This document shows, piece by piece, positions 3,348 to 36,024 of a stretch of 64,000 nt of DNA. Numbering within the stretch: position 1 is the stretch's first letter; every line of letters begins with the position of its first letter. The notes beneath the pieces are model-generated. The model saw nothing but the letters and a program-made list of their open reading frames with translations, was not told the origin of the DNA and did no database searches. The stretch comes from Candidatus Omnitrophota bacterium (GTDB lineage: Bacteria > Omnitrophota > Gorgyraeia > Zapsychrales > Zapsychraceae): positions 24,177-88,176 of the forward strand of contig JAJDCA010000053.1 in NCBI GenBank assembly GCA_029261055.1, written 5' to 3'. A program made the position numbers and the translations under genes.

Positions 3348-5305
3348 ATAATTTTCCTCATGGCTTCAAAAATAATTTGATCATCATCCATCCGCCGCAT
3401 CTGAATTTTATTCTTCGCCACATCATAAATGGCTTGACCAATATGGGTTGCATCGGTGGATAAAATAAAACCTTTTTGATTAAGCTTTGCAATAAATGCC
3501 ATGTGCTTATTTTTCTTTACTGATTGTCCTTGCCGTATTTGCGGTGAAAATACGATTGTTTGATTACCGGAAGACGCCGTTTCTGAAATCATAGAAATAC
3601 TGTCTCCGGAGGTCACCACAAAATTTGAAAGACCTAAAATACCTCCTACAGCCTCGGGGACATCTTCTTTATTGGCAAGTATCAATAAAGGACACCGTGC
3701 ATCATTTTTAAACTCTTTTTGAAACAAACTTTCAATATGGGCCGGGGTTCGCCGAGATGTTGTAATTAAAATGTCGGCATTAATCGTTTTTGCAACTTCT
3801 TTAATCTGCTGAATCAAAACCTGCATTTGACGTTTACTAAGATAAACATCTTTAGCATCCCCGCCGATAAAAAGACCTATTTTGTCCCGAAAGTTATTTT
3901 TTAAATGCGAAAATCTATTCAATAACAATTCAGCCTGTTCTTTCAAATACGCATCATTAATAAGATTCGGCGCTCCATTGGTGACAGTCATCCCTGTTTT
4001 CTTAGGATGGCTCCTCAAATCATGCTCCGGCAAAATAACCAAATCAAATTGTGCAGAACTTAATAAACCCGGCTTTTGAATCGCAACACTTTTAGCCCCA
4101 TAATCTTTGGACAACACACGATTAATGCCCGCCACCGTTGAACCACAAGAAATAAAATAATCGGTTTTTATGGTTGTCAATGCACGGTATGATTCCGGTG
4201 TGAAAAACTTCTGAAGAAACTCTAAACGCCCTTGATAAAAAAATGGTTGTACTAAAGCACTCACAAGAGAAAAAAGACGCGCTGCATTCTTACTTTTAAA
4301 TACAACCTCAACGACTTGGACCTGCAATTTAATATTTCTTTCTGCCAGGGCTTTTTCCAGCATTCTTGCCGCTGCTTGCGATTGTCGTAGATGCCCTGTT
4401 CGGCCGTCATAAAGAATAGTGACGGCAGCCTCTTTAGAATATTTCCAAATTTTGTAAAACCACATGTACTCGTCGGGATACTGCCCAACAAACTGTTCCA
4501 TTAATTCCATAGCCTTGTTTAAATTACAAACAACATCTTGTTCCGCATTATCCGTTTTAACAAATTCTAACGGCTTAGAAATAATAATTCGATGCTGTGC
4601 TCCTTTCTCACGATGAATATTTGCAAAACAAACCGCCGCCCCAAGTCTCGTACCTAATCGTATGGCGCCCGTCGACATGGAAGCGCCTCGCCCAAAAAAA
4701 TCAACTACCGTACCGCGCTTCCCGCCCTGATCAACAACAAGGGAAACAATTTCATTAGAACGCAAACTTTTGATAATTTCTTTGGTTTGAGGACCGGCAA
4801 ATAAATAATGAATACCTTGCCCTTCCCGATAAGAATTTAAAAAATGATACAATTTAGAAAATCGCATTTGTGGATTGATGACAACTTTGTACGGAAAACC
4901 TAATTTAGCTCCTTGTAAGCTCGCCAACTCCCAGTTGCCGGAATGAATCGCCAGAAAAATAACACCTTTATGCTTCTGCATGGCCTCTTTAATAATCTCG
5001 CCCCCTTCAAGAGAAACAATTTTTGGTAAGAGATCCTCGCTCATCAAAGGCAAGCGTAAAAATTCAATAATATTCTGGCCGTAATTTTGGAAGACCCGCT
5101 TTAAAATGGCCAATATTTCTCTATTGGATTTTTTCCCGACAAATGCCATCCGTAAATTGGAATACGCCATTGTCCGACGCTTAAGATCAAACCAATACCA
5201 CAATACGCCCACACGGCGACCAATCCAAAGGGCGACACTGAGCGGAAGACAGCGCATAATTGTTCCAAAAATTTTAACGAGCCAGATGATGATGGATTCT
5301 TTCAA
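3344..5305 (-). CDS. LpxL/HtrB-like lipid A lauroyl/myristoyl acyltransferase fused to a C-terminal ELM1/DUF1022 domain.
   Basis: The N-terminal 290 aa resemble LpxL (hydrophobic N-terminus, ...AIHSGNWELASL... acyltransferase block). The C-terminal 350 aa resemble the ELM1 (PF06258) fold (ILYDGRTGHLRQSQAAARMLEK..., IGGDAKDVYLS..., TTSRRTP..., TSGDSISMISE). Confidence 0.7.
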   Translation of the reverse strand: MKESIIIWLVKIFGTIMRCLPLSVALWIGRRVGVLWYWFDLKRRTMAYSNLRMAFVGKKSNREILAILKRVFQNYGQNIIEFLRLPLMSEDLLPKIVSLEGGEIIKEAMQKHKGVIFLAIHSGNWELASLQGAKLGFPYKVVINPQMRFSKLYHFLNSYREGQGIHYLFAGPQTKEIIKSLRSNEIVSLVVDQGGKRGTVVDFFGRGASMSTGAIRLGTRLGAAVCFANIHREKGAQHRIIISKPLEFVKTDNAEQDVVCNLNKAMELMEQFVGQYPDEYMWFYKIWKYSKEAAVTILYDGRTGHLRQSQAAARMLEKALAERNIKLQVQVVEVVFKSKNAARLFSLVSALVQPFFYQGRLEFLQKFFTPESYRALTTIKTDYFISCGSTVAGINRVLSKDYGAKSVAIQKPGLLSSAQFDLVILPEHDLRSHPKKTGMTVTNGAPNLINDAYLKEQAELLLNRFSHLKNNFRDKIGLFIGGDAKDVYLSKRQMQVLIQQIKEVAKTINADILITTSRRTPAHIESLFQKEFKNDARCPLLILANKEDVPEAVGGILGLSNFVVTSGDSISMISETASSGNQTIVFSPQIRQGQSVKKNKHMAFIAKLNQKGFILSTDATHIGQAIYDVAKNKIQMRRMDDDQIIFEAMRKII

Positions 5306-6461
5306 AAAACTCTTCCTTTCCCTGTGTAATCGAAATTTTAATTCTAAGCGCCGCTATTAAAGTATCCTCCGTAAAATGCTTAATAAACTCTGTAAGTTTC
5401 ACCGCATCCTTTTGTGTCGTGACAATCGTCTGCAAATCATGTTTACGGCAATAGGCTGCCATGTCTTGGGCCTCTTGCGCCCCATACACATGATGATCCA
5501 TAAACACAAAATGCTTTTGAATAGCGGCCCCTAAATTTTGTACGGTTTGTCGAAATGATTTTGGATCGCCGATACTGCTCAATAAACACACTTTTTTTGC
5601 TCGAACACATGACAATTCAGAAATAGCATTAGACTTAATGTTAACAAAATGGGCCGGTTTATGTATCGTCTCTATGACGGGCGCATGCGGATTAATAGAC
5701 TTCAATTTTTCCTTTAATGCCTCTACATTGACGCATTCCATATCTGTCTTTGTCAGGACAAAGACATGCGCTCGCTTAAGGGCTGACAACGGTTCACGTA
5801 AAATTCCCCGCGGAATCAACGCGCCATTGCCAAAAGGATTAACACTGTCGATGGCCACAATATCCATATCTCTCGACAAGCGCCAATGCTGAAATCCATC
5901 ATCCAACAAAAAAACATCAGCCCGATTATTTTTTAGAAAGGCTCTGGCATTAGACACCCGGTCTTTGCCAACAAGAATCGGAACGCCCTCCAAAGAACCT
6001 TCCAACATCTTCGCCTCGTCACTTAAATGGGCATGATGAATCATGCCCCTACAGACTCCCCCCGTAAGGGCATGATTCATCATGCCCCAGACGCCCCTCG
6101 TACGGGCATGATTTATCATGCCCCAGACGCCCCTCGTACGGGCATGATTTATCATGCCCTTAATAGGCTTTGACATGTATCCTCGTATGAGAATAGCCGG
6201 CTTTATTTTTTTTTGCTGCAATACTTCCGCAACATATTCCACTAACGGTGTTTTTCCAACGCCACCCAAAGTAATGTTGCCTATGCTAATAACGCGCGCT
6301 CCAACCTGATGCTTACGTAAAATCCCCCTGGTGTAACAAAACGCCATACCTTTCACAATACCACTGTAAACCCAGGACAGGACCCGCAAGGCACCCTTTA
6401 AAATACACGATGGAAAACCTGCAATCTGATCCGTCGCCATGCGGAAAAAAAAATCTTTCAT
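5274..6461 (-). CDS. lpxK: Tetraacyldisaccharide 4'-kinase LpxK carrying an in-frame repeat insertion.
   Basis: SIGNITLGGVGKTP P-loop, ILIRGY, LLDDGFQHWRL and VLTKTD motifs are present. An extra block of about 48 aa (GMINHARTRGVWGMINHARTRGVWGMMNHALTGGV...) sits in the variable loop after RGY. Confidence 0.85.
   Translation of the reverse strand: MKDFFFRMATDQIAGFPSCILKGALRVLSWVYSGIVKGMAFCYTRGILRKHQVGARVISIGNITLGGVGKTPLVEYVAEVLQQKKIKPAILIRGYMSKPIKGMINHARTRGVWGMINHARTRGVWGMMNHALTGGVCRGMIHHAHLSDEAKMLEGSLEGVPILVGKDRVSNARAFLKNNRADVFLLDDGFQHWRLSRDMDIVAIDSVNPFGNGALIPRGILREPLSALKRAHVFVLTKTDMECVNVEALKEKLKSINPHAPVIETIHKPAHFVNIKSNAISELSCVRAKKVCLLSSIGDPKSFRQTVQNLGAAIQKHFVFMDHHVYGAQEAQDMAAYCRKHDLQTIVTTQKDAVKLTEFIKHFTEDTLIAALRIKISITQGKEEFFERIHHHLAR
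6021..6170. repeat. REP-like palindromic array (copy R1) inside the lpxK coding sequence.
   Basis: Four 20-21 bp palindromes (gggcatgatgaatcatgcccc, gggcatgattcatcatgcccc, gggcatgatttatcatgcccc x2) are separated by 15-19 bp linkers. The last two 36-bp units are identical (linker agacgcccctcgtac). The period is 36 bp, equal to 12 codons. Confidence 0.8.
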
Positions 6462-7812: not shown

Positions 7813-8051
7813 GCCGAAATTGCAGTAAATGTTTAGCGTTCTGAGCTGCCTACGAGCTAAAGCACGGAATTATTTCACGCATGAACGCTTGTTCGCCCCT
7901 GCGGGCTCACATTGCTCGACGAAAGCCCTGCGCATTCCATGCTGAACGCATGGAAACCGGCTGCTTGGGCTTTCAACGTCCTGCTTAGAAATAATCCCAT
8001 GCTTTTAACGCTCTTCGACAACTCAGAACACTAAACATTTACAAATTGCAG
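7813..8051. repeat. Intergenic segment of about 240 bp flanked by a 20-25 bp inverted repeat.
   Basis: tgcagtaaatgtttagcgttctgag (about 7813-7836) is the reverse complement of ctcagaacactaaacatttacaaattgcag (about 8022-8051), with one or two mismatches. The interior is GC-richer than the surroundings and has local hairpins such as ttccatgc-tgaac-gcatggaa. Confidence 0.4.
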
Positions 8052-8060
8052 GACAATCTC

Positions 8061-8741
8061 CTAGCCAATTCCGTACTGTGCGTTCATATCGGCTATTTCT
8101 TGTGTAGAGTAATTTGCGGCATCTACCAACGTAGCCTCCAGCACATTTTCATGTGCGAAAAATTGTTGTAGATGGTAACGTTTGGCTTTTGGAATGAGTT
8201 GCGCAATTTTGGGAAGATCTTCTTGGGGGGAGATATGCGGTTTGACAACTGTCGTGCGGAATTCATGGTCCAGGCCGGAGCCCGTAATAAGGTTAATGCT
8301 TTCTTGAATCTGTGACGTGTAGTCTTTACCATCTGTCACCCAATAATACTTTTCTAAAGGCACTTTGATATCCATGGCAATGTAATCGACTAATTTTAAA
8401 CGGATAATTTCTTTAAGAACATCCGGACGACTCCCATTGCTATCCAATTTCAACAAGTATCCCATGGACTTAACTTTCTGTAAAAAATTAATAAGATCTT
8501 TTTGAATGGTCGGTTCACCGCCGGTCACAACAACACCTTCAAGCTGCTGCCGTCGTTTTTCCAAGAATGCTAAGACCTCCCCCTCGGGAATACCTATTCT
8601 AAAATATTTGGGGAGGACTAATTCCGGATTATGACAATACGGACATCGAAAATTACACCCCTGCGTAAAAACCACTGCGGATAATTTTTCAGGATAATTA
8701 ATAAAAGAAAATTTTAACAATCCACCAATTTTCATTTTCAC
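8061..8741 (-). CDS. nrdG: Anaerobic ribonucleoside-triphosphate reductase activating protein (radical SAM). The track start is GTG; an in-frame ATG two codons downstream (about 8735) is likelier.
   Basis: It has the CNFRCPYCHNPELV radical-SAM cysteine motif and a GGEPT glycine-rich SAM motif. It lies downstream of nrdD. Confidence 0.85.
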   Translation of the reverse strand: MKMKIGGLLKFSFINYPEKLSAVVFTQGCNFRCPYCHNPELVLPKYFRIGIPEGEVLAFLEKRRQQLEGVVVTGGEPTIQKDLINFLQKVKSMGYLLKLDSNGSRPDVLKEIIRLKLVDYIAMDIKVPLEKYYWVTDGKDYTSQIQESINLITGSGLDHEFRTTVVKPHISPQEDLPKIAQLIPKAKRYHLQQFFAHENVLEATLVDAANYSTQEIADMNAQYGIG

Positions 8742-8747
8742 ACCCTG

Positions 8748-9080
8748 CTAGAGACACGAAATCGCTTTTGAGCAAAGATTGATACGTTCGGCTCAGAGGA
8801 GACCTCCTTCTGGTCGGCCTCCAATGGTTCGACAAGCTCACCACTATTTAAAGCTTGTTGAATGGTTCGCCTCACGAATCAATCTTTACTTTGCGCAATT
8901 ACGAATTATACCAATCTATTAACCCCTACGACTCTTGATTTATAAACTTTCGACCCGTCTTAACAAAATTTTATGTTAAGGCCTGTAGGCGAATTGGACG
9001 CGACAAAAATACTACGTCCTCTGAGCCGAAAGGCCTTAACATAAAATTCAATAGACGGGTTGCTCGAAAATTCGCATTTA
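8748..9080. repeat. Structured dispersed repeat of about 330 bp, copy M1, between nrdD and nrdG.
   Basis: It is 85-90% identical to the reverse complement of 20031-20363. It contains a stem of about 28 bp (cccgtcttaacaaaattttatgttaaggcc ... ggccttaacataaaattcaatagacggg) and a nested ggacgcg...cgtcc hairpin. It also has the long-range inverted repeat ttcggctcagagga ... cctctgagccgaa. Confidence 0.75.
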
Positions 9081-9089
9081 TTTAGACAA

Positions 9090-11198
9090 CTATGTCACCA
9101 CGTATGTTTTTCGCTTCTTAAACTCTTCTTTTTTGCCTTTATTCCATTGCTGTACAGGACGTAAATAGCCGACAACGCGTGAATAAATTTCACAGGCGCT
9201 CGTGCATTTCGGACAGGCAGGATGTTCGCCAGCTACATAGCCGCAATTAGGGCATACACTAAAGGTCGGCGTGATGGTAAAGTAGGGCAAATGATATTTT
9301 TCACAAATAAGGCGAATCAGCGACTTAAGGCCCTCCACATTATGAATTTTCTCCCCGACAAATCCATGTAAAACCGTACCTCCGGTGTAACGGGTTTGTA
9401 ATTCATCCTGAAGATCCAGGACCTCAAAAATGTCCTCGGAAAAATGAACAGGAAGATGTGTCGAGTTGGTGTAAAACGGATCTTTTCCTTCTTGCCATTC
9501 TTCTTCATTGGCAACAATCGTTTGCGGATACAAAGCTTTATCCATTTTGGCCAGCCGATACGAAACGCCCTCGGCAGGTGTTGCTTCGAGATTGTAAATA
9601 TTACCCGTGTCTTCTTGAAACCGCACAAGTACATCACGCATAAAATCTAAAACCCTTTTGGCAAAATCTTGCCCACGTTGTGAAGTAATATCCTCGCCGA
9701 AAAGATTCAGGCAAGATTCATTCATACCGACGAGTCCAATAGTAGCAAAATGATTTTTCCAATATTGATCAAACCGCTTTTTAATATTCCGTAAAAAGAA
9801 TTTCATGTACGGATACAAATTGCCGGCGGTAAATTTTTCTAATACTTTCCGTTTGATCTCAAGACTCTCCTTGGCGGATTCCATATGATGTTCTAATTTT
9901 TTAAAATAATCTTCTTCATTCTGCGAACAATATCCAAGCCGTGCCATATTGATCGTCACGACGCCAATCGACCCTGTTAACGGGGAGGCTCCAAACAATC
10001 CTCCTCCTCGACTACGCAACTCTCGATTATCTAATCGTAGACGACAACACATGCTGCGCGCATCCTCCGGATGCATATCGGAATTAACAAAATTTGAAAA
10101 ATACGGAATGCCATATTTAGCCGTCATTTCCCAAAGGCCTTTTAAATCCGGATTATCCCAATCAAAATCTTTTGTAATATTGTACGTCGGGATGGGAAAT
10201 GTAAATACACGGCCTTTAGCATCTCCTTCACACATCACCTCCATAAAAGCTTTATTCAACATATTCATTTCATGTTGAAACTCTTTGTATGTTTCCGTTT
10301 GTACTTTGCCCCCAATAATCACACCTTGATCGGCATAATAAGACGGCGGCATTAAATCTAATGTAATATTTGTAAACGGTGTTTGAAAACCAACTCTCGT
10401 CGGTACATTGACATTAAACACGAATTCTTGCAAAGCCTGTTTTAAATTTTTGTAACTCAATCCATCCCGCCGAATAAATGGCGCCAAAAGCGTATCAAAA
10501 TTGGCAAAGGCCTGCGCACCGGATGCCTCACCCTGCAGCGTGTAGAAAAAATTCACCACTTGCCCCAAGGCACTCCGAAAATGTTTGGCCGGTCCTGATT
10601 CCATTTTACCAACAGCGCCCTGAAAACCATTCGTCAAAAGATCATACAAATCCCATCCCACGCAATACACGCTGATCAATCCCAAATCATGAATATGATA
10701 TTCCCCGTTGTGATGACCTTCCCGTATGTGCGGCGGATAAATTTTATTCAACCAATAATTTTTGCTAATCTCCGAAGAGATGTACTGATTCAAACCCTGC
10801 AAAGAAAAAGCCATATTACTATTTTCATTCACTTTCCAATCCGTTTTATCTAAATATTGATCCACAAGATCCACATGACTTTTGGATGTGATTTCGCGAA
10901 TACGTGCATGCTGATCACGATAAATAATGTACGCCTTAGCCGTATTTTTGTACGGTGACGACAATAAAACTTCTTCAACAATATCTTGAATATCTTCTAC
11001 GGAAGGACAGCTGTTAACAAATAACTGCTGTGCAAGATTAAGAACATTGAGCGTAATTTTACGCGCGATGACAGATGAAAACTCTCCTGTAGCTTCCCCG
11101 GATTTTTGAAGAGCATAGGTAATTTTTTGCGGATTAAAAATTTCTTTTTCACCATTGCGTTTGACAATCTCTGTAAGAATCCCGGTTGTATTCATCAT
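9090..11198 (-). CDS. nrdD: Anaerobic ribonucleoside-triphosphate reductase (class III, glycyl radical enzyme).
   Basis: The 702-aa ORF has an ATP-cone-like N-terminus. The C-terminus has a Zn-ribbon (CPNCGY...CPKC) and the glycyl-radical region (RVVGYLRP). nrdG follows it. Confidence 0.9.
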   Translation of the reverse strand: MMNTTGILTEIVKRNGEKEIFNPQKITYALQKSGEATGEFSSVIARKITLNVLNLAQQLFVNSCPSVEDIQDIVEEVLLSSPYKNTAKAYIIYRDQHARIREITSKSHVDLVDQYLDKTDWKVNENSNMAFSLQGLNQYISSEISKNYWLNKIYPPHIREGHHNGEYHIHDLGLISVYCVGWDLYDLLTNGFQGAVGKMESGPAKHFRSALGQVVNFFYTLQGEASGAQAFANFDTLLAPFIRRDGLSYKNLKQALQEFVFNVNVPTRVGFQTPFTNITLDLMPPSYYADQGVIIGGKVQTETYKEFQHEMNMLNKAFMEVMCEGDAKGRVFTFPIPTYNITKDFDWDNPDLKGLWEMTAKYGIPYFSNFVNSDMHPEDARSMCCRLRLDNRELRSRGGGLFGASPLTGSIGVVTINMARLGYCSQNEEDYFKKLEHHMESAKESLEIKRKVLEKFTAGNLYPYMKFFLRNIKKRFDQYWKNHFATIGLVGMNESCLNLFGEDITSQRGQDFAKRVLDFMRDVLVRFQEDTGNIYNLEATPAEGVSYRLAKMDKALYPQTIVANEEEWQEGKDPFYTNSTHLPVHFSEDIFEVLDLQDELQTRYTGGTVLHGFVGEKIHNVEGLKSLIRLICEKYHLPYFTITPTFSVCPNCGYVAGEHPACPKCTSACEIYSRVVGYLRPVQQWNKGKKEEFKKRKTYVVT

Positions 11199-11656: not shown

Positions 11657-11775
11657 ATCCGCTCCTCTGTAGATAAAGAAGCAAGAAGCATAGGTACAAG
11701 AGGCAAAGATTTTTACATCTTTACATCTTACTTCTCTACTTCTTGCTTCTCTACTTCTTGCTTCTCCTTTAACAT
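11657..11775. repeat. Purine-arm/pyrimidine-arm inverted-repeat element, copy E1.
   Basis: gataaagaagcaagaagcataggtacaagaggcaaagat is followed by the complementary arm ttacttctctacttcttgcttctctacttcttgcttctcc. It belongs to the same family as E2-E6. Confidence 0.7.
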
Positions 11776-13780: not shown

Positions 13781-13905
13781 GCATAATGGGCATAATAAAT
13801 TATGCCCCTACAGACGACCATCGTACGGGCATGATTCATCATGCCCATGCAAACAACCCGCGCCCTCGTACGGGCATGATTTATCATGCCCTTATTATTA
13901 CAATA
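13781..13905. repeat. REP-like palindromic element, copy R2.
   Basis: gggcataataaattatgcccc - tacagacgaccatcgtac - gggcatgattcatcatgccc - atgcaaacaacccgcgccctcgtac - gggcatgatttatcatgccc. Confidence 0.75.
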
Positions 13906-16607: not shown

Positions 16608-16765
16608 AAATAATAAAAAGACACAAGAAACAAGATGCAAAAAGCAAGAAACAAACAAATTTCAAATGACTGTGGCTGTTAATTTGTTTAATTCTTGAAT
16701 ATTAAAATTAGAGTATTACTTATATCTTGTATCTTGCTTCTTGTTTCTTGCTTCTTTACTTAATA
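16598..16765. repeat. Purine-arm/pyrimidine-arm element, copy E2.
   Basis: aaaagacacaagaaacaagatgcaaaaagcaagaaacaaacaaat ... about 60 nt ... cttatatcttgtatcttgcttcttgtttcttgcttctttactt. Confidence 0.7.
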
Positions 16766-19058: not shown

Positions 19059-19578
19059 ACCCGTTTAATTCTTTTGTGGAAATCATTAAACAATATTCAT
19101 CTAAACAAGTTTTAACATCAATTTTTCCCATTTTTCCATCAGCCGTAAAGTTAACAGATTCTTCATCTGCTTCCAATCTAACTTTTGCAGGCACATATGC
19201 AACCCGCCCAAGACGCCCGGACAACTGCTGCCATTTTTTTTCTGAGGTTGGATCTTTATATTCTAGCCAATACGCTTTATCTTCGAGATTGATAACAAGA
19301 CGATATTCCTGATTCTTGAGAATGGCACGACTTTGTGCATAACGCATGAGCTGCCCTAAATGATCTGCTGTTTGATTGAGTTGGCGCTTCCAATAGGAAC
19401 GGTTTAAGTTGGGAAACGATAATCCTGCGATAACACCTAAAATAGATATAACGAGAATAATTTCAAGGAGGGTAAAACCGTATGTACTGTCACGCTCCAG
19501 CTTCGCTAATTTTTGCTGAGGCGGGCGTGCCGCGCTTCTATTGCTCATCAAACCCATCATCCCAATTGACAATATCAT
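19036..19578 (-). CDS. gspH: T2SS minor pseudopilin GspH.
   Basis: It has a prepilin motif YGFTLLEIILVISILGVIAGL. Confidence 0.55.
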   Translation of the reverse strand: MILSIGMMGLMSNRSAARPPQQKLAKLERDSTYGFTLLEIILVISILGVIAGLSFPNLNRSYWKRQLNQTADHLGQLMRYAQSRAILKNQEYRLVINLEDKAYWLEYKDPTSEKKWQQLSGRLGRVAYVPAKVRLEADEESVNFTADGKMGKIDVKTCLDEYCLMISTKELNGYVYVYEF

Positions 19579-19981
19579 CTTCGCTTTCTACACCATCGGG
19601 ACCGTAAGAATACAAATCATATTCGTTAGTATTATGCCCTCCCGGAGCCACATACACATAATTTTTTTTCCAAGGATCTGTGGGAAGTTTTTTCTTTTTT
19701 AAGTACGGCCCGTTCCATTGCATAGGCTCCGGGGCTGAGTTCGGTTTTTCAAGCAACGCTCTTAAACCCTGCTCCGTCGTAGGATAATCACCATTATCCA
19801 ATTCATACATATCCAAAGCCGTAGAAATATTCGACTCAATGTCCACCCTGGCCGCATCTTTCTTAGCCTGTTTGCCTCGCCCGGATAACTTGGGAGCCAC
19901 CATAGCCGCCAGCATCACAATAATGCCGATCACTAATAAAATTTCGATAATAGTAAACCCTTCATTATTTCTTTTTTTCAT
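19538..19981 (-). CDS. gspG: T2SS major pseudopilin GspG.
   Basis: EGFTIIEILLVIGIIVMLAAMVAPKL, ...ALDMYELDNGDYPTTEQGLRALL..., ...DPWKKNYVYV... and ...GPDGVESEDDIVNW are hallmark GspG blocks. Confidence 0.85.
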   Translation of the reverse strand: MKKRNNEGFTIIEILLVIGIIVMLAAMVAPKLSGRGKQAKKDAARVDIESNISTALDMYELDNGDYPTTEQGLRALLEKPNSAPEPMQWNGPYLKKKKLPTDPWKKNYVYVAPGGHNTNEYDLYSYGPDGVESEDDIVNWDDGFDEQ

Positions 19982-20030
19982 CTTTGTCCCTTTCTTAAAC
20001 TCATTACTCGCTTAAATTACGGTAAACATT

Positions 20031-20363
20031 CAATCAAGCCGTCTACTGGGAGGTTATGTTAAAACCTTTCGGCTCAAAGGACGCAATATTTTTGTCGCGT
20101 CCAATTCGCCTACAGGCTTCAACATAACCTCTTGTTAAGACGACTTGATTGAATGTTTACCTATTAAGAAAATCGTAATCGCGCAGAGTAAAGATTGACA
20201 TATGCGGCGAACCATTCGACAAGCTTAAAATGGTGGTGAGCTTGTCGAACCATTGGAGATCGACCAGAAGGAGATCTCCTCTGAGCCGAATATGTTAATC
20301 TTTACTTAGGAGATTGCAAATAACATATCAGCAATCTCTTAAAAGCGATTTCGCGTCTCTAAC
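20031..20363. repeat. Structured dispersed repeat of about 330 bp, copy M2, inverted relative to M1.
   Basis: The reverse complement aligns with 8748-9080, sharing for example ...ccaatggttcgacaagctcacc...agcttgt(c/t)gaatggttcgcc... and ...cctgtaggcgaattggacgcgacaaaaata.... It has its own stem of about 45 bp, ggtaaacattcaatcaagccgtc ... gacgacttgattgaatgtttacc. Confidence 0.75.
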
Positions 20364-20368
20364 TTAAA

Positions 20369-21595
20369 TTATATCGCTAAATTCATATTAATAATAGGCA
20401 ACAATAAAGCGATAACCATAAAAAGAACAATACAGGCTATCACAAAAATTAAAGCCGGCTCTACCAAAGACATCATCACCTTAATCCATGCCGAAGAACG
20501 ACGCTCGTGAAGATCGGCGAGCTTAAAAAGCCCCTTTTCTAACTCACCTGTCTCCTCTCCGATAGCAATAATACTCACAGTTGATTCAGGAATAACTGAA
20601 CATTTCCCCATTGCCTTCGTCAAACTTGTTCCCTTTTTCACTTCTAAAGCAACAAAAGAAATTTCCTTTTTTAAAACAGCATTCGTCAAAACATCACGCA
20701 CGGCATCTAAAGCGGTCACAATAACGACCCCGCTATCTAACAATGTCCCTAAACTCCTGGCAAAGCGCCCTATCTCAACATCCCGAATGAAATCCCCTAA
20801 AACAGGAACACTTAACGTAAACGCATCCAACCACAATTTTCCCTTAACCGTATTTTTAAGCGTATTAATGTAAACGACCACCGCACCTATCCCTGCCAAC
20901 ATTAACCACCAAAAATGAATAAACATATCACTTATGCCAATAAGAATTTTTGTTGGCAAAGGAAGGCCTTGATCCATATCTTCAAACATCACAGTTAATT
21001 GAGGAATAGCAAAAATCATCAAAGCGGTAATAACAACAGCCCCCACAATTAAAATAAATACCGGATAGACAAGACTTGATGTCACCTTGGAACGGATTTC
21101 TTGATCCTTCTCAGCAAATTCAGCTAAACGTTTCAAAACAATAGCAAGATTTCCGCCAATTTCTCCGGATTTGACCATATTGATATACATCGGAGAAAAA
21201 ATATTTTTGTGACGGGCTAAAGCGCTAGAAAATGTCCCCCCATCCTCAACAACATTGTACATGTCAGAAATAATACTTTTTAGCTGTACACTCTTGGTTT
21301 GATTAAGAATAATCCGTAGGCCTCTCAAAAGAGGAACATTCGCATCAACTAAATCATACATCTGCCGTGTAAAAAAAGCTATTTGAGCAAGAGAAATACG
21401 CTTAAATAAATTAATTGAAGCCATCGAGGTACGCGACTGCGTTTTAGCCTGCACTTCGGATGCCGGAGAAACGGCCAGAGGCGTATACCCAAGCTTTGCA
21501 ATTTTAGCAACGGCACTATTGATATCATCAGCTTCAATAACACCTTTAACAATTTGATCAGGACCTTGCTTGGCTTTGTAAATAAATTTTGGCAT
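20369..21595 (-). CDS. gspF: T2SS inner-membrane platform protein GspF (PilC family).
   Basis: The 408-aa ORF has two GspF/PilC repeats and three TM segments. Confidence 0.85.
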   Translation of the reverse strand: MPKFIYKAKQGPDQIVKGVIEADDINSAVAKIAKLGYTPLAVSPASEVQAKTQSRTSMASINLFKRISLAQIAFFTRQMYDLVDANVPLLRGLRIILNQTKSVQLKSIISDMYNVVEDGGTFSSALARHKNIFSPMYINMVKSGEIGGNLAIVLKRLAEFAEKDQEIRSKVTSSLVYPVFILIVGAVVITALMIFAIPQLTVMFEDMDQGLPLPTKILIGISDMFIHFWWLMLAGIGAVVVYINTLKNTVKGKLWLDAFTLSVPVLGDFIRDVEIGRFARSLGTLLDSGVVIVTALDAVRDVLTNAVLKKEISFVALEVKKGTSLTKAMGKCSVIPESTVSIIAIGEETGELEKGLFKLADLHERRSSAWIKVMMSLVEPALIFVIACIVLFMVIALLLPIINMNLAI

Positions 21596-21598
21596 TAA

Positions 21599-21698
21599 AT
21601 GAATAATTTAAAGGGCATGATGAATCATGCCCCTACAAACGACACTCCCCGTACGGGCATGATTTATCATGCCCCTAATCGATTCATCATGCCCTAAT
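21599..21698. repeat. REP-like palindromic element, copy R3.
   Basis: gggcatgatgaatcatgcccc - tacaaacgacactccccgtac - gggcatgatttatcatgcccc - taatc - gattcatcatgccc. Confidence 0.75.
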
Positions 21699-23460: not shown

Positions 23461-23560
23461 TTTAAAGAAGCAAGAAACAAAGAGGCAAGAGGCAAAGATT
23501 TAGAACATCTCTGCTTCTTGCCTCTTTACCTCTTTACCTCTCTACTTCTTCATACCCAAA
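23461..23560. repeat. Purine-arm/pyrimidine-arm element, copy E3.
   Basis: agaagcaagaaacaaagaggcaagaggcaaagatttagaacatctctgcttcttgcctctttacctctttacctctctacttctt. Confidence 0.7.
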
Positions 23561-23563
23561 CCT

Positions 23564-26500
23564 TTATGGCGCAGACTGAATGACCACCTTATCCACATAA
23601 AGATTCCTGTCACCGCTTGAACCGTAATAATCATTTGTGAACGCAATGGCTACTTTATGCATACCTGCAGAAACATTACTGACACTCACGTACGGCCCAT
23701 ACGAAGTTGAATTTACTGTAAAATTATCCACAGCTACTTGATCTACTCTCACCTCCATTTTAGACCACTCCCCTAACACCTTTTTACCTCGTGCTCTTAT
23801 TTCAAAACTGTAACTGCCACTCGTTGGAAAATCGACCGTCTCCTCAATATATCCATTACTCCAAATATTCCAACTCCCATCACTCTTTCTTCCCCCTGTT
23901 GTTTTAGTTTCCATATTCTCTGCTTCAATTTGTATCGTAAATGGCTCCGGATCTGGTATAGGATTAGGCGGTGTTACATCTCCTCCGCTTCCACTCATTA
24001 ATGTAATATTTATTTTATCTACATAAAGATTCCTGTCGCCACTTGTACCGTAGTAATCATTTGTGAACGCAATGGCTATATTGTGTAAACCTGCAGGAAC
24101 ATCCTTAACGCTCACATATTGCCCAAATGAAGTTGAATTAACTGTAAAGTTATCCACGACAACTTGATCTACCTTCAACTCCATTTTTGACCATTCATTT
24201 AAAATGTTTTTTCCTCGTGCTCTTATTTCAAAAGTATACCTACCATCCGTTGGAAAATCGACGGCTTCTTCGATATATCCATTACTCCAGATATTCCAAC
24301 TCCCATCACTCTTTCTTCCTCCTGTTGTCTTAGTTCCCATATTCTCAGCCTCAATTTGTATCACAAATGGTGCTGGATCTGGTGTAGGCTCCGGCGTGGG
24401 ATCTGGTGCAGGATCAGGTGCAAGATCAGGCGTTACATCTCCTCCACTTACACTCATTAATGTAATATTTACTTTATCCACATAAAGATTCCTGTCACCA
24501 CTTGAACCGTAGTAATCATTCGTGAACGCAATGGCTATATTATGTAAACCTGCCGGAACATTCTTAACGCTCACATATTGCCCAAATGAAGTTGAATTAA
24601 CTAGAAAATTACCCACAACAACTTGATCTACCCTCAACTCCATTTTTGACCATTCATTTAAAATATTTTTTCCTCGTGCTCTTATTTCGAAACTGTAACT
24701 TCCATCTATTGGAAAATCGACAGCTTCTTCGATATATCCATTACTCCAGATATTCCAACTCCCATCACTCTTTTTTCCTCCTGTTGTCTTAGTTCCCATA
24801 TTCTCGGCTTCAATTTGTATCGCAAATGGTGTGAAATCAGCCATGGTCGTCACAGACGTAGACACAGATTGCCCGGATTCATTACTCATCAAATCTAAAG
24901 CTGCAACTCTATAAGAGTATGCCATTCCAGCTGTTAAACCTGTATCCGTGTGGCTAACACTTAATACATTCGTTATTAAAACGCCATCCCGATATATATT
25001 ATATCCTGTCACACCTACATTATCTGTTGATGCACTCCAGTTAAGATCTACCTGTGAAGAAGAAATCGCTATTGCACTGAGGTTCATCGGCATTGATGGG
25101 GCCTCAGTGTCAATATTAGGTACTGGAATTGGTGCTGGCAAAATATCCAGATTCAATTTTGTTACAATTACTGTATACATTCGAGGGGATTGATTCCCTC
25201 CCAAAATAATCTTTCCAGCAGAAAAATTCTTTGCTAATACACTCATTGATCGAATTGATGTTGCAAGATCATCTCCGGTATCTACAAATCCTGACAACCA
25301 TGCAGGCTTATCCGTTTGCCTATTGTCATAAGTTATGTATACCGTAACGTCCTGATCAACATCAAAACTCAAAAAGGTAGCACTACTGGAAGATTTGTCA
25401 TTATTGGATGTTTTAATATAGGTTGCCCCTTGAAGCTGAGAAGGAACACTACTATACATATACGTACGGTCAATATACGCCAAAACACCATTGTTCAAAC
25501 TATCATAGATCACCTGATAGGTCTCTCCACTTTCAACAGATAGATTGCTAATAACTAATGGCATTACATATCTGTATGTAATTTGTGTACCTACAGGAAT
25601 CGCGTTGGCTGAATTAGACAAGTCCCGCACATTAGAAATGCTGAGAGTGTAGGAAACACCTTCACTATGTGGTGATGTAACCAAGGTAACTGTTTTTTGA
25701 TCAACCCCTAAATAAGCATCCACAACAGAAATGCTGTTATTGATTTTATAATTAGATAATGTAGTAGCACTTATTAATTCTACCTGTTCGCTGTAAGTGA
25801 TATCTACTGTATTTCCATTGCTCCCGGCTATTACAGACATAATTCCCGGAGGAAGAATATCTGTCAAAGTACTTACTGTTGCCGAAAAACTTTTCGATGA
25901 TTCCAACCCTGTACTATTAACAGCTGACACTTCATATGTGTGAGAAGCGCCTGATGTTAATCCTGTGTTGGAAAATTGAAGAGATGATGTTTGGTTAATT
26001 TTGACACCGTCTCGATAAATATTATATGTGCTTACACTAGATTCCAAATCAATAGCTGCTGACCAATTGAGATCAATTTGAGATTCACTAACAGCAATTC
26101 CACTAAGATTTTGAGGTGTTGAAGGTGGCGTTGTATCTGGCGTTGAAGGCCCGCCTTCAAGTTCCTTCATAATTTTAAAAAATTCACCACTATGCAAAAT
26201 GGTCTCATAACCATAAAATCCTAACGAAGATGATCCTCTTGATCGAACAACCTTCCAATCATCATAAGCTGCTTCAGCAATGGCACGCCATTTTGGAGCC
26301 GTATCATACCATTGTGAATTTGTTCCTTCCCCATTGTCGTAAAGCTTCCATAAATAGGCTAAAGCATACATCAGATGTGTGCTTCCTCCATCCGTGTTAC
26401 GTGAAGCTTCGGAATAAACAAAATAGGGATGTGATTTTAAATTTTCTTCCCAACCAAATTTCACAACAAAGTTCATGGTTTGCAATAACATCTCTTTTAT

Positions 26501-28798
26501 AAGAGAAGCATCTACATAACTATAATCTTTATCTGTTTCATAAAATTTAATCAAGGAAGCTAAAACAGACCCTGCCATCCAGGGATTAGTTCCGTTATAA
26601 AGCAACTTACCTTGTTTATATTCTGATGGCCACGGAGAATTATCTTGTCGTGGATACATATGCCACCAGCCCGTTCCTTGTGTCCAATCATTCTGACCAA
26701 CAACGGTCCCATTCACCCAATGTTCGGATGGCATCTGCCACCATTGAATAAGATGATTAACTTCCTGGGCTGCCGCTTGAAGATATTTAGTATCTCCCGT
26801 CGCCCTAAAAACTTCATTCATGACAAACAACGGCCAGCCAAAATCCCGTTCAGCCTCACCCCAATGCTCATTACCTACAGGTGTTGGGAAAAAAACAGGG
26901 ATAGCTTTGGCCCACCAATTTCCTACCTCTTTAATAACACCCAATGAACGCTTGTCTCCCGTCAAAATATAATAATCCGGCAGCCCTGAAACATGGGCAT
27001 GTCCCTTATGAATGTTTCTCGAGTTATGATCGTGTACATCATGCTTAATCATATGCCCTTCACCGGGCCCGAAATCTTTATTGCCCCATGGCCCACCGCG
27101 ACGGTCAGTATGCGAAACATCAACATCCATCCAATGGCGTGAAGCCTTTTCAGCTAATTCCCACCATCGTTTATCTTTCGTACGAAGATATTGGATAAAA
27201 TACTGATGCGCCCCGACATGTGTGTCATTATAAAATGCAGGTATGCGTACCCCATTAGAACTTGTCCCATCCCAACCGGCCCGCATACGGTCACCAAAAT
27301 CTCGCCAACCATACATAACCGTAATACCTCCAGTATCTTTTTTATCTTCAATGCTTCTCTTATAATATCCACTGATCAAATTATCATCATAACCAGCTGA
27401 CCAAGGACCAGCCTCAACCATATCCCCAAATACTTTTGATTGGGCATACCATGTAGCAGGTGCTGTCACTAATGGATAATGCGCTTGAAAAACTTTATTA
27501 TGATTACTGATATCCGCTATGGATTTACTCTGATTGTGGAAATCAAATAGAATTTGATACGTCTTTGCCCCACCTTCTCGAGAAAAATAAAATGTATTTG
27601 GCCTTTTGTATTTTTTATTGACTGCATCATGTGGCGGATACGAAAGATCCGGCGTTGGTGACGAAGCTCGTGTTGGGTGAAGGTAAGCAATTAATGCATT
27701 ATTTTCAATAGCAAACTCTTTTGGATATTGCTGCCAAAAATCTTTAATCATCACACCCACACCAGATCCAGTATTATTGCTACTCACGTCCATCCATCCA
27801 GGGGCCTTTGCTCCTGAACCAGCGCCTTCATAACCAAAATCAAATGGTTGCAATCCACCATCAATATAATTCATATCCCCATGCTGATATAAGTAATGAT
27901 TCCCTGACACTGGACCGGTGAGTGTTTGATTATTTTCTCCACCAAATGCATACATCGCATTAGAAAGATTAAGAGGAAGTTTCAAACCATATCCCGTGAC
28001 ACTTAATGCTAATTGACTACGGGAAGCGGCCACATCCTTTTCTAAACGTGTATCCACTAAAGTATAATCCATTTGAATTTGACCTTGCCCAGCATAAGCA
28101 TACAACCAGACAATAAAATCCGTTAAAGTGCTACCATTGTCCGTTTGGAGCTTACCTTCTACCTTAACTGTCATACGAATCGGTCCGCTTTCCTCTATTG
28201 TATAAACCGGCTGCGTAAATAAGGAGGAAGAGTATTCTAAATTGTCGAAGGCATTAATAAGGAAAATTTTACCTGGCTGGCTCATCATTTTTTCAGAATC
28301 GTCATAAAATCCATCCGCATTATTATCCACCCAAACCTGATCAAATACTGTAAACGCACTCTTATTTAATTCAAATTGAATAGCCCCCGTATCAACGAGA
28401 ATTGATGACCCATTATCTACGTAAGAAAGCCCTTCACTATAAGTGGAATGGCTAACGCCTGATCCATACTGGAGAACATAATCTGTTGTTAAATTTGTTG
28501 ATATATCAGAGGCAAAATGAACTAAAATAGATTTGTAGCTGCTGTCCGGCCATTGAACAAGACCTTCAAATTGAGCGGGTATTTCAACACCACCCAAGTT
28601 TTCCAGACGCAAATTATTTAAAGAAGTCACCGCTCCCCTTGGAAAGGGAACACCTGTTGAAACCATGTAATTATTAACATCGGCTGAACCTGCATCCACA
28701 GTTAGAGTAACACTATTTTGAGCGTTGACATTTTGAATTTCTCCGGAAGTTGTCAGAATCACAGAAGCGACCAATAATATGAGCATTTTATTTTTCAT
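23564..28798 (-). CDS. Large secreted multidomain protein: signal peptide, an N-terminal domain of about 800 aa (possible glycan-active or binding fold), two FN3 modules with Ig-like spacers, and three tandem C-terminal carbohydrate-binding modules (CBM6/35-like) joined by Pro/Thr-rich linkers.
   Basis: The signal peptide is MKNKMLILLVASVILTTSGEIQNVNA, with an AGGAGG RBS 7 nt upstream. The FN3-like repeats read ...NLSGIAVSESQIDLNWSA...YNIYRDG.... There are three IQIEAENMGTKTTGG(K/R)KSDGSWNIWSNGYIEE...FTNDYYG(S/T)SGDRNLYVDK units. The linkers read PDLAPDPAPDPTPEPTPDPAP. Confidence 0.7.
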   Translation of the reverse strand: MKNKMLILLVASVILTTSGEIQNVNAQNSVTLTVDAGSADVNNYMVSTGVPFPRGAVTSLNNLRLENLGGVEIPAQFEGLVQWPDSSYKSILVHFASDISTNLTTDYVLQYGSGVSHSTYSEGLSYVDNGSSILVDTGAIQFELNKSAFTVFDQVWVDNNADGFYDDSEKMMSQPGKIFLINAFDNLEYSSSLFTQPVYTIEESGPIRMTVKVEGKLQTDNGSTLTDFIVWLYAYAGQGQIQMDYTLVDTRLEKDVAASRSQLALSVTGYGLKLPLNLSNAMYAFGGENNQTLTGPVSGNHYLYQHGDMNYIDGGLQPFDFGYEGAGSGAKAPGWMDVSSNNTGSGVGVMIKDFWQQYPKEFAIENNALIAYLHPTRASSPTPDLSYPPHDAVNKKYKRPNTFYFSREGGAKTYQILFDFHNQSKSIADISNHNKVFQAHYPLVTAPATWYAQSKVFGDMVEAGPWSAGYDDNLISGYYKRSIEDKKDTGGITVMYGWRDFGDRMRAGWDGTSSNGVRIPAFYNDTHVGAHQYFIQYLRTKDKRWWELAEKASRHWMDVDVSHTDRRGGPWGNKDFGPGEGHMIKHDVHDHNSRNIHKGHAHVSGLPDYYILTGDKRSLGVIKEVGNWWAKAIPVFFPTPVGNEHWGEAERDFGWPLFVMNEVFRATGDTKYLQAAAQEVNHLIQWWQMPSEHWVNGTVVGQNDWTQGTGWWHMYPRQDNSPWPSEYKQGKLLYNGTNPWMAGSVLASLIKFYETDKDYSYVDASLIKEMLLQTMNFVVKFGWEENLKSHPYFVYSEASRNTDGGSTHLMYALAYLWKLYDNGEGTNSQWYDTAPKWRAIAEAAYDDWKVVRSRGSSSLGFYGYETILHSGEFFKIMKELEGGPSTPDTTPPSTPQNLSGIAVSESQIDLNWSAAIDLESSVSTYNIYRDGVKINQTSSLQFSNTGLTSGASHTYEVSAVNSTGLESSKSFSATVSTLTDILPPGIMSVIAGSNGNTVDITYSEQVELISATTLSNYKINNSISVVDAYLGVDQKTVTLVTSPHSEGVSYTLSISNVRDLSNSANAIPVGTQITYRYVMPLVISNLSVESGETYQVIYDSLNNGVLAYIDRTYMYSSVPSQLQGATYIKTSNNDKSSSSATFLSFDVDQDVTVYITYDNRQTDKPAWLSGFVDTGDDLATSIRSMSVLAKNFSAGKIILGGNQSPRMYTVIVTKLNLDILPAPIPVPNIDTEAPSMPMNLSAIAISSSQVDLNWSASTDNVGVTGYNIYRDGVLITNVLSVSHTDTGLTAGMAYSYRVAALDLMSNESGQSVSTSVTTMADFTPFAIQIEAENMGTKTTGGKKSDGSWNIWSNGYIEEAVDFPIDGSYSFEIRARGKNILNEWSKMELRVDQVVVGNFLVNSTSFGQYVSVKNVPAGLHNIAIAFTNDYYGSSGDRNLYVDKVNITLMSVSGGDVTPDLAPDPAPDPTPEPTPDPAPFVIQIEAENMGTKTTGGRKSDGSWNIWSNGYIEEAVDFPTDGRYTFEIRARGKNILNEWSKMELKVDQVVVDNFTVNSTSFGQYVSVKDVPAGLHNIAIAFTNDYYGTSGDRNLYVDKINITLMSGSGGDVTPPNPIPDPEPFTIQIEAENMETKTTGGRKSDGSWNIWSNGYIEETVDFPTSGSYSFEIRARGKKVLGEWSKMEVRVDQVAVDNFTVNSTSYGPYVSVSNVSAGMHKVAIAFTNDYYGSSGDRNLYVDKVVIQSAP
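23583..24840. repeat. Intragenic tandem repeat of about 440-455 bp, three copies, encoding the three CBM units.
   Basis: Near-identical blocks begin at about 23583, 24010 and 24465 (...ccacataaagattcctgtc(a/g)cc(g/a)cttg(a/t)accgta...). Copies 2 and 3 are more similar to each other than to copy 1. Confidence 0.75.
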
Positions 28799-28990: not shown

Positions 28991-29444
28991 CATCCTATTA
29001 TTGACGCGTTTGCGCCTTTGTCTTTTTAATAAAATCTTCTGACTAATAGGTAGCTGGCTACCCTGCTTCTATCCTGCAGGGCCCTTGGCTTTGTGCCCCA
29101 TCCTTACGAATGGTTTACCTTTTTCTATTTCCATTGAAAGTATAACATGAAAAGATCGATGCGCAAGGGACCGGGAGGAACTTTATACAATTTTTTTATA
29201 CGGGGGATTAAAAACTATAGCGGAAGAAAACACAACTCATTGCAATCGTGCAAATTACAAAAAAATAAAATAACCTAAATTTTTTTAATATATTAAATTT
29301 TTTTGCATTTTAATTTTGACGCACTATGACAACAATGGACATACTATGACATTTAGGAGCCAAGCAGAAATAACTTCCCTAATTTTTACGACGTTCTTAA
29401 CGCAAGGAGGCAGAATAAAGAAGAAAATTATTTTTGCTTGGTCT

Positions 29445-30050
29445 CTATAGGGCCTGGAAGAACTCTCTAATTAAGCGCGGCTTCTTCACCCCAGGGGATT
29501 GCTCCACGCTGCTTGAAACATCCACTGCATAAGGATCGACGACATTTAATGCCTCATTAATATTTTGAGCACTTAACCCACCAGATAAAATAAAAGGTTT
29601 ATCAATCTTTTGTGCCGCTAAAGATTTCCAGTTAAATGTTTTTCCTGTACCACCTTGAATATCTTCTTGATATGTATCAAAAAGATACGCATCTACCTTG
29701 TATTTTTTAATCTGCTCAAAATCAAAAACCTGCCCTATACGAAAAGCCTTAATAATTTTAAACCCTGTAAACCGTTTGCAATAAACAGCTTTTTCCTCTC
29801 CATGAAATTGTAATGTTTGAATATTTGTAAATTTACAAATATCTCGAACAGCTTTTTCACTCTGATTCACAAAAACACCAACCGGCGTAACAAACGGCGG
29901 TAAAGCCTCAATAACTTTTTTTGCCCTACTAGGAGAAACGTACCGAGGGCTTTTTTTATAAAACACAAAACCAACGGCCCAAGCCCCATAATATACCACT
30001 TTAAGAGCATCTTCTATATTTGTAATACCGCATATTTTAACTTTTTTCAT
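29445..30050 (-). CDS. trpF: Phosphoribosylanthranilate isomerase.
   Basis: MKKVKICGITNIEDA... is the TrpF N-terminus. The ORF is 201 aa and downstream of trpC. Confidence 0.85.
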   Translation of the reverse strand: MKKVKICGITNIEDALKVVYYGAWAVGFVFYKKSPRYVSPSRAKKVIEALPPFVTPVGVFVNQSEKAVRDICKFTNIQTLQFHGEEKAVYCKRFTGFKIIKAFRIGQVFDFEQIKKYKVDAYLFDTYQEDIQGGTGKTFNWKSLAAQKIDKPFILSGGLSAQNINEALNVVDPYAVDVSSSVEQSPGVKKPRLIREFFQAL

Positions 30051-30094: not shown

Positions 30095-30172
30095 AAACCT
30101 TGCCTACTGGCAGGCAGGTTATGCCCCTACAAGCACACATCCGTACGGGCATGATTCATCATGCCCCTAACA
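30095..30172. repeat. REP-like element, copy R4, with a GC-rich palindromic insertion.
   Basis: gggcctaataaa[ccttgcctactggcaggcagg]ttatgcccc - tacaagcacacatccgtac - gggcatgattcatcatgcccc. Confidence 0.7.
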
Positions 30173-36015: not shown

Positions 36016-36024
36016 TACCTCTTT

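Follow-up and report, generated by a model that had tools for sequence, protein, structure and literature searches.

What is the sequence of some 340 bp that separates nrdD from nrdG in the genome of a Candidatus Omnitrophota bacterium, and why does it recur in inverted orientation 11 kb away, between gspF and gspG? The DNA in question is a stretch of 64,000 nucleotides (the window; the term always means this whole stretch) from contig JAJDCA010000053.1 of assembly GCA_029261055.1, positions 24,177 to 88,176 of the forward strand, and the two copies are referred to here as M1 and M2. An initial annotation, made from the letters of the sequence, had described a structured repeat resembling either a MITE (a miniature transposable element with inverted repeats) or a large structured RNA, and had suggested that its two copies could mediate inversion of the DNA between them. 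As set out below, M1 and M2 look like an undescribed, lineage-restricted family of structured interspersed repeats, of the bcr1/bcr5, REPIN or ERIC-like kind. That they are a non-autonomous mobile or repeat element, putatively mobile and co-transcribed with its host operons, is a reading we favour with middling confidence.

That there are two inverted copies was readily confirmed. A repeat search of the window returned three collinear inverted blocks: M1 8771-8907 against M2 20170-20306 (137 nt, 86%), M1 8956-9044 against M2 20054-20142 (89 nt, 89%), and M1 8749-8788 against M2 20322-20361 (40 nt, 78%). When each copy was compared with the window by blastn its sole partner, besides self-complementary matches, was the other copy (E = 9e-44). 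A global alignment of M1 and M2 has 303 aligned positions with 52 substitutions, or 82.8% identity; the 85-90% first reported is true of the conserved blocks alone. The three longest stretches without a difference measure 31, 26 and 16 nt. There are three indels, namely a 33-nt hairpin present only in M2, 25 extra nucleotides in the linker of M1, and 4 nt in a stem, and because the indels consist of hairpins or linker they suggest modular, nested growth.

Both copies lie in spacers between genes. With the top strand of the element defined as M1(+) = M2(-), M1 occupies 8749-9085 (+) and fills the nrdD-nrdG spacer with its top strand antisense to the operon, and M2 occupies 20020-20361 (-) and fills the gspF-gspG spacer with its top strand in the sense direction. 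M1 takes up the entire 348-nt spacer, which begins at the stop codon of nrdD and ends at the ribosome-binding site of nrdG. The gene calls behind the earlier statement that M1 splits nrdD from nrdG, and M2 gspF from gspG, are upheld by Pfam: the gene at 9090-11198 (-) has the NRDD and ATP-cone domains of nrdD, that at 8061-8741 (-) encodes an nrdG-type radical-SAM activase, gspF (20369-21595, -) matches T2SSF, gspG (19538-19981, -) matches T2SSG, and gspE was likewise confirmed. Nearly all open reading frames (ORFs) of the window are on the minus strand. No flanking coding sequence is duplicated together with M1 or M2, and the boundaries of the unit are gene ends at both sites. The presence of a discrete unit in two unrelated operons, in opposite orientations to transcription, supports the view that M1 and M2 are a mobile or repeat element.

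Both copies are also strongly structured, and the long hairpins ascribed to them at the outset were located as inverted arms in each. In M2 the arms are at 20021-20044/20138-20161 (96%) and continue into 20050-20084/20097-20131; in M1 they are at 8967-9000/9015-9048. The minimum free energy (MFE) of M1 is -112 kcal/mol on the plus strand and -122 kcal/mol on the minus strand (z = -8.1 and -6.5 against dinucleotide shuffles), and that of M2 is -166 and -152 kcal/mol on its two strands (z = -15.1 and -15.2); none of 100 shuffles folded as well as M1 or M2. RNAalifold, given both copies, predicted 79 pairs on the top strand with nine two-sided changes, five one-sided changes to G.U and none broken, and 91 pairs on the opposite strand with 10 two-sided changes. 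This result is biased because both sequences enter the prediction, and so the fold of a single copy was mapped onto the other copy. The M2 fold mapped onto M1 had 80 pairs unchanged, four compensated on one side, nine compensated on both sides, 11 broken, and 18 in gaps; the other three combinations gave similar counts. Thus 13 of the 24 changed pairs are still paired, nine of them through two-sided changes. Independent substitutions would give far fewer than nine double compensations in 24 changed pairs, and so the structure of the element has been kept under constraint through divergence, M1 being the more eroded copy. Overall, the claim that a distinct and highly structured repeat has been inserted in the spacers of two operons is supported.

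These counts bear on the simplest account of the two copies, a one-off segmental duplication of a spacer that brought neither function nor mobility. Only two copies are known, and neither a clear target-site duplication (TSD) nor a clear terminal inverted repeat (TIR) marks them, as such a duplication would have it. Neutral decay should have broken base pairs, however, yet over half of the changed pairs still pair; the unit ends where genes end at both sites and carried no coding DNA with it; and its internal doublet architecture (see below) is that of an organised element. We consider a one-off duplication quite improbable.

How is the element built? Read 5' to 3' on the top strand it has a leader, a domain 1, a variable linker, a domain 2 and a poorly conserved tail. 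The conserved leader is TAGAGAC(R)CGAAATCGC, the 3' part of which pairs in the predicted fold with GCGC(R)ATTACG to close domain 1. In M1 the leader (TAGAGACACGAAATCGC, 8749-8770, +) supplies the 5' strand of this closing helix, P1, and pairs with 8893-8903 (GCGCAATTACG); it is conserved in M2, where the P1 pairing is present in the MFE fold. The M1 helix has one C.A mismatch (column pair 16/183, which is CG in M2 and CA in M1). Domain 1 of M1 (module A, sense; 8771-8890, +) consists of an outer stem P2, a three-way junction and the hairpins P4 and P5, and scores 153.8 bits with R1, the covariance model of this domain. A 14-nt core, TTCGGCTCAGAGGA, was found in it by pattern search of the window at 8787-8800 (+). 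Nested hairpin P5 (8826-8865, +) belongs to module A only and is bracketed by a direct repeat, AATGGTTCG (8823-8831 and 8861-8869). The linker follows at 8904-8947 (+), 25 nt longer than its M2 counterpart, and then domain 2 (module B, antisense on this strand; 8948-9069, +), which forms one long hairpin in which the internal loops and the apex are conserved. A 31-nt block of the apex (8981-9011) is identical in M2, and the same pattern search placed the 14-nt core of module B at 9017-9030 on the minus strand. In M2, domain 1 (module A) is at 20187-20306 (-) with its core at 20277-20290, and the M2-only hairpin (GAGATTGC...GCAATCTC, 20308-20340, -) stands between P1 and P2. Domain 2 of M2 (module B; 20021-20161, -) is a nearly perfect long hairpin whose core, at 20068-20081 on the plus strand, has one G>A change.

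The two domains resemble each other. Besides its own target, R1 finds the domain 2 of each copy, on the opposite strand, with 27.0 and 23.2 bits (E = 0.0017 and 0.019 for 1.33 Mb searched on both strands, that is 2.66 Mb). The alignment runs from end to end, through the outer stem, UCGGCUCAGAGGA, the inner hairpin, UCCAA, UUCGCCU and the outer stem again, and the sole deletion in it is of 41 model positions belonging to P5. Common to both modules is the core TTCGGCTCAGAGGA followed by TCCAAT and TCGCC. Searching the window for the core with up to two mismatches gave five matches where 0.19 would be expected, and four of the five are the module cores. The element is, then, a pseudo-symmetric doublet of two homologous hairpin modules inverted to each other, of which module A has gained the nested hairpin P5, an architecture missed by the initial annotation. 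Since the modules are homologous in inverted orientation, both strands read sense module, linker, antisense module, and the mRNAs of both operons would therefore carry similar RNA elements despite the opposite orientations of the DNA.

Some smaller features of the doublet may be recorded here. The fifth match to the core, TTCGGCTCAGAGGG (13/14; 42495-42508, -), falls within a TPR-protein gene, close to its 3' end, and is probably due to chance. P5 has 7-nt inverted ends, ACAAGCT...AGCTTGT, and the 9-nt AATGGTTCG repeat that flanks it is the same in M2; this repeat is as long as the 9-nt direct repeat that flanks M2 itself. A very small insertion that duplicated a 9-bp target could have left P5 and its AATGGTTCG repeats behind, and so could slippage. 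The domain-2 apex contains a 23-codon ORF, MLRPVGELDATKILRPLSRKALT (M1 8973-9044, +; M2 20054-20125, -), with a mirror ORF on the other strand. From M1 to M2 its product differs by R3K and A21V, most of the differences being synonymous. We considered it as a gene and rejected it, judging it to be a by-product of the TTATG...CATAA palindrome; M1 offers no usable Shine-Dalgarno sequence. No ORF inside the element exceeds 48 amino acids, and six-frame translations compared with 5.8 billion proteins gave no protein relative.

Could the element be there for the benefit of the host? A cis-acting RNA in polycistronic mRNAs that is processed by RNases, stabilises the mRNA or offers a platform to which proteins bind would set differing levels of nrdD and nrdG, and of gspF and the major pseudopilin gene gspG, and the symmetry of the doublet would allow it to work in either orientation. 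Both copies are placed exactly between cistrons of differing stoichiometric need, their structure has been kept through 17% divergence, and sequence-specific recognition is suggested by the length of the blocks (31, 26 and 16 nt), unpaired or in junctions, that are identical. Furthermore, the minus strand of the window, which is the mRNA-sense strand, folds better than the other by 10-13 kcal/mol in each copy, and M1 has 12 G.U pairs on the mRNA-sense strand against four on the other. The mRNA-sense strand is G-rich, however (G 23.7%, C 15.7%), and because of this its folding advantage is explained equally well by mutational skew, which would itself be expected to produce it, or by selection at the RNA level. 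An assignment of the acting strand from G.U pairs was tried and set aside, since both copies favour the window minus strand and this is the G-rich one; the two copies are compatible with action on either strand and with selection at the level of RNA or of single-stranded DNA. The loss in M1 of 11 pairs present in M2 is decay-like, and near-perfect stems of at least 18 bp are unusual for functional RNAs, two points that count against a cis-acting RNA.

The distribution of the element tells further against host function. The closest relatives of this nrdD are from Omnitrophota metagenome-assembled genomes and are 74-81% identical, and the source lineage is an isolated one: in database searches the best nrdD match was 81% identical and the best non-self match of the PilMN neighbour only 40%, and no relative near enough for an empty-site comparison turned up. 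A spacer survey was made of 78 related genomes that carry both nrdD and nrdG, with spacer lengths estimated. The two genes are indeed usually adjacent, as had been supposed: against the 348 nt found here, 53 of the 78 genomes have a spacer of at most 20 nt, 19 one of 21-100 nt, and five one of 101-147 nt. A single deltaproteobacterium has a spacer of 328 nt, making six of 78 above 100 nt. In the three closest Omnitrophota (nrdD 77-81% identical) the spacers are about 134-147 nt and have unrelated hairpins. The element is absent from the nrdD-nrdG spacer in all 78 relatives, most of which have the genes directly adjacent, and so it is not an ancestral regulatory feature; given this absence and the normal adjacency of the two genes, M1 is taken as a lineage-specific insertion. 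A host-beneficial cis-acting RNA is accordingly a doubtful alternative, albeit one to be taken seriously.

Are there further copies or relatives elsewhere? When 1.33 Mb of loci, mostly from Omnitrophota, were searched with nhmmer and two covariance models, only the copies of the window and Logan fragments of M2 were recovered. The 22-mer of the domain-2 apex had no match in GTDB species representatives, JGI metagenomes or IMG/VR, the source genome itself lying outside the GTDB and JGI sets that were searched. The bipartite AATGGTTCG pattern gave one match, a chance one in a TARA coding region; patterns for the module core gave in IMG/VR either no match or two chance matches in coding regions, on which the domain-1 covariance model scored nothing. 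Comparison with PLSDB plasmids and INPHARED phages by blastn found nothing. Logan contigs that extend the window by about 1.4 kb to the left and 3.5 kb to the right hold no copy. Two Logan contigs of run SRR15505515 break inside M2. One (L001) starts at 20116, exactly at the 31-mer that M2 shares with M1, and the other (L082) ends at window position 20255, where M1 and M2 have no 30-mer in common; the latter break hints weakly at a third M2-like copy, or at a strain variant, in the sample. A literature search found nothing published on MITEs in Omnitrophota, on the sample accession or on the core sequences.

Does the element have the hallmarks of a known type of mobile DNA? At about 340 bp, and non-coding, it is within the size range of MITEs (below about 600 bp). 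The terminal symmetry of MITE type that had been attributed to it was not recovered, though: an alignment of the initial 45 nt to the reverse-complemented final 45 nt gave a weak repeat in M1 (17/20 with three gaps) and none in M2, only a 7-nt chance match, and the symmetry that does exist is internal. The suggested check for target-site duplications gave a mixed outcome. M2 has a 9-nt candidate, a direct repeat whose left copy (TAATTTAAG, 20363-20371, -) overlaps the gspF stop codon and whose right copy is at 20011-20019 (shuffle p about 0.02), whereas M1 has nothing comparable, its longest flanking repeat being 5 nt (p = 0.8). With regard to repetitive extragenic palindromic (REP) sequences, Di Nocera (2013, PMC3733652) gives a GTAG (or CGTC) tetranucleotide tag at the REP head as the defining feature. 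GTAG is present in the domain-2 apex (CTGTAGGCG) and not at the equivalent position of domain 1; the core starts with TTCGGC, and the module core thus lacks the GTAG/CGTC head tag. The doublet arrangement of REPINs does have its counterpart here, the 14-nt core forming an inverted pair in each copy, with the two cores 216 nt apart and each within its own hairpin. Because the element does not fully fit the definition of MITEs (TIR and TSD) and lacks the GTAG tag that defines REPs, we file it under the general kind and not under a named family.

Several of these observations weigh against a mobile element. The known copies number two. No relatives were found in GTDB, JGI, IMG/VR, PLSDB, INPHARED or the 1.33 Mb of related loci. 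There is no TIR or TSD consistent across M1 and M2, and the best-conserved parts are the apical and junction sequences and not the termini, unlike in TIR-type MITEs. No gene for a transposase, RAYT, recombinase, reverse transcriptase, IscB or TnpB was seen in the 64-kb window and the Logan extensions of about 5 kb; every ORF of the window has a housekeeping Pfam assignment or none. Lastly, selection for a host function at each site is an equally possible explanation of 17% divergence with the structure kept. Two copies within 11 kb of a 64-kb window would, on the other hand, imply many copies genome-wide or local hopping.

If M1 and M2 are a mobile or repeat element, events may be pictured as follows. 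Elements would insert as discrete units into intercistronic spacers of the Omnitrophota genome. Their conserved cores would be displayed on hairpins in single-stranded DNA, where a trans-acting enzyme encoded elsewhere in the genome would recognise them and copy or move the element in the fashion of a REPIN or a MITE. An inserted element would be co-transcribed with the operon in whichever orientation it landed, and its RNA would form two long hairpins that do not terminate transcription but probably influence processing or stability in such a way that the flanking cistrons become uncoupled. No terminator-like site was found on the operon strand of either copy, nor a terminator at the ends. 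Downstream genes should thus still be expressible, which would explain why the element is tolerated in operons; the lack of a terminator on this strand equally suits a cis-acting host RNA.

Comparison with known systems brings out both the likeness and the novelty. The bcr1 and bcr5 repeats are interspersed repeats of 155-310 bp in the Bacillus cereus group (Okstad 2004; Kristoffersen 2011; in Delihas 2011, PMC3184786). Like the Omnitrophota element, bcr1 has two independent stem-loops, is transcribed and shows compensatory base changes, while bcr5 (310 bp) has no inverted terminal repeats and a stable predicted structure (PMC3184786); both are non-coding and lineage-restricted, and neither has sequence similarity to the element. 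The differences are that bcr1 has 5-bp direct repeats at every one of its dozens of copies, against a 9-nt candidate at one of two here; that bcr5 flanks a resolvase/transposase cluster, genes of a sort not present here; and that the two modules of the element are homologous to each other and inverted. REPINs, which are mobilised by RAYT transposases, share with the element an inverted pair of conserved short sequences with a less conserved spacer between them (Bertels & Rainey 2011, PMC3116915), as well as predicted hairpins in single-stranded DNA or mRNA, common compensatory changes, an extragenic location and occurrence in either orientation. In REPINs, however, the distance between the conserved 16-mers is only some 70-110 bp and pairing takes place between the two REPs, whereas in the element the modules fold separately, each into a hairpin of about 85-125 nt, with the cores 216 nt apart; moreover, module A has no GTAG tag and no RAYT is known. 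ERIC (IRU) and Correia (NEMIS) elements are, similarly, imperfect palindromes in transcribed intergenic regions of operons (Delihas 2011, PMC3184786), found in either orientation, folded in mRNA, and with size variants that arise by internal insertions. They differ from the element in having clear TIRs and a TA target duplication, neither of which is seen here, in being 100-160 bp rather than about 340 bp, and in lacking sequence similarity. Orientation-dependent effects of ERIC and Correia elements on mRNA were reportedly described by De Gregorio in 2005 and by Mazzone in 2001.

The size, the multi-helix fold and the possibility of several copies also recall the RNAs of transposon-associated systems, namely HEARO (the omega RNA of IscB), the omega RNA of TnpB and the bridge RNA of IS110, which are 150-400 nt long. 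Unlike these guide RNAs, the element has no Rfam match at E <= 10 that stands above noise and its structure is strand-symmetric; genes for iscB, tnpB or an IS110 recombinase are found neither beside either copy nor elsewhere in the window. More generally, the alternative that this is a known class of non-coding RNA (ncRNA) can be dismissed. With Rfam 15 run on the whole window at the gathering threshold there was no match to M1 or M2, the only hit being a c-di-GMP riboswitch elsewhere (see below), and at E <= 10 the two copies drew only noise far under threshold from generic long-hairpin microRNA, internal ribosome entry site and small RNA families. An origin from tRNA was considered and rejected, as ARAGORN found no tRNA or tmRNA in the window and Rfam no tRNA match at E <= 10; the likeness of GGCTCAG/GGTTCGA to A and B boxes is superficial. 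A stretch resembling a XerD arm (TTATGTTAA) in the stem and an IHF-like ATCAA are resemblances that do not fit the full consensus, and these too were dropped.

If not a known RNA, might it be a new one? An independently transcribed ncRNA gene family of about 340 nt with two paralogues would be a new RNA class, as no Rfam family matches it. The multi-domain fold, with its closing helix, three-way junction and long hairpin with conserved internal loops, and the covariation between the copies are in keeping with such a family. Yet no sigma-70-like promoter was detected within or beside either copy, only the sigma-70 consensus having been scanned, and the ends lack a terminator; both strands fold into an equally good structure, as a palindromic DNA element predicts; the copies fill operon spacers, and a top-strand transcript of M1 would be antisense to the nrdDG mRNA; and no homologue turned up in 1.33 Mb of related genomes. 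Independent ncRNA genes are consequently an improbable explanation. A new class of large structured RNA (or RNA/single-stranded DNA element) that is carried in the operon transcripts themselves is also unlikely, if a little less so. Here the conserved protein-recognition module would be the GGC-UCAGA-hairpin-AAUUC-GCC internal loops, borne by a long stem and arranged as sense-plus-antisense doublets in Omnitrophota operon transcripts, and the element might be the scaffold of an RNA- or single-stranded-DNA-guided mobile-element enzyme, or an intercistronic processing system.

Two inverted repeats of about 340 bp lying 11 kb apart make homologous recombination physically possible, and it was on this account that inversion of the segment had been put forward, whether as a programmed switch or through recurrent recombination. 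The proposal found no support. The window contains no recombinase or invertase gene. M1 and M2 would be poor RecA substrates, as they are only 83% identical with a longest identical run of 31 nt, and at 17% divergence they show no sign of gene conversion or homogenisation. GC skew keeps a negative sign all along 1-32 kb, across the segment; all genes inside the 11 kb are co-oriented with those that flank it; the segment carries housekeeping genes, and an inversion would part nrdD from nrdG, as it would gspF from gspG. The Logan contigs L001 and L082 share the junctions of the window. Programmed or frequent inversion is thus unlikely, and that M1 and M2 serve as its substrates at all seems to us highly improbable.

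Hardly anything has been described of the repeats and ncRNAs of Omnitrophota, which are uncultured, and the M element has some interest as an unusually large, two-module example whose structure survives about 17% divergence. If it is mobile, it would be a new type of non-autonomous element, with no terminal repeats and an internal conserved core, and the core would point to the mobilising enzyme. If it acts at the RNA level, it would be an inserted repeat that uncouples nrdD and nrdG, genes that normally overlap. There is a practical side as well, in that such repeats fragment short-read assemblies, as the Logan contigs ending inside M2 show.

The M element is not alone, for the operon spacers of the window, plus one coding gene, are colonised by several hairpin-repeat families, and because the window is so rich in intergenic hairpin repeats M is read as one more structured interspersed repeat family. 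REP doublets with the classical GTAG tag (GTAG/GTAC-GGGCATGAT...ATCATGCCC) occur at 6026-6167, 13785-13894, 21613-21674 and 30105-30166; they belong to a different sequence family from the M element. The copies at 13785-13894, 21613-21674 and 30105-30166 are REPIN-like inverted doublets in spacers, including the gspE-gspF spacer that adjoins M2. The cluster at 6026-6167 (GGGCATGAT[G/T][A/T]ATCATGCCC) is inside the lpxK ORF (5274-6461, -). It is translated in frame as three repeats of GMINHARTRGVW, between the P-loop/RGY region and SDEAKML, and splits the Pfam LpxK match into two stretches. In this it is like the Rickettsia palindromic elements that are inserted in frame into genes. Logan contig L085 has at its end (1-33) a member of a second family of GTAG-tagged REPs, GTAGGGGCGGTTCGCGAACCGCCC.

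Other elements of the window were seen in passing. The nrdG-waaA spacer holds a rod-like element of about 218 nt (7830-8042, -), closed by a 21-nt inverted repeat (GTAAATGTTTAGTGTTCTGAG/CTCAGAACGCTAAACATTTAC); it has an MFE of -120 kcal/mol (z = -13.3), has no Rfam match at E <= 10, and is without a second copy in the window. Purine-rich (AAGAAGCAAGAAG...) and pyrimidine-rich mirror or inverted repeats recur immediately upstream of several genes, at 11674-11765, 16617-16757, 23472-23555, 32595-32634 and 35809-36028, and might be motifs of the H-DNA or intrastrand-triplex type (compare PMC4666352) or leader elements. Hairpins of the sequence CCCCGAGGATTGT are at 1057-1186 and belong to a family, ACAATCC(T/C)CGGGGGTTTG, that has several more copies just beyond the window, in Logan contig L084 (7190-7480). 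Finally, the riboswitch mentioned above is a c-di-GMP-I-GGC aptamer at 29045-29128 (-), whose 59.3 bits compare with a gathering score of 59. It is in the 646-nt spacer between trpF (29445-30050) and a gene for a 1744-aa CBM60/fn3 protein (23564-28798), upstream of the latter.

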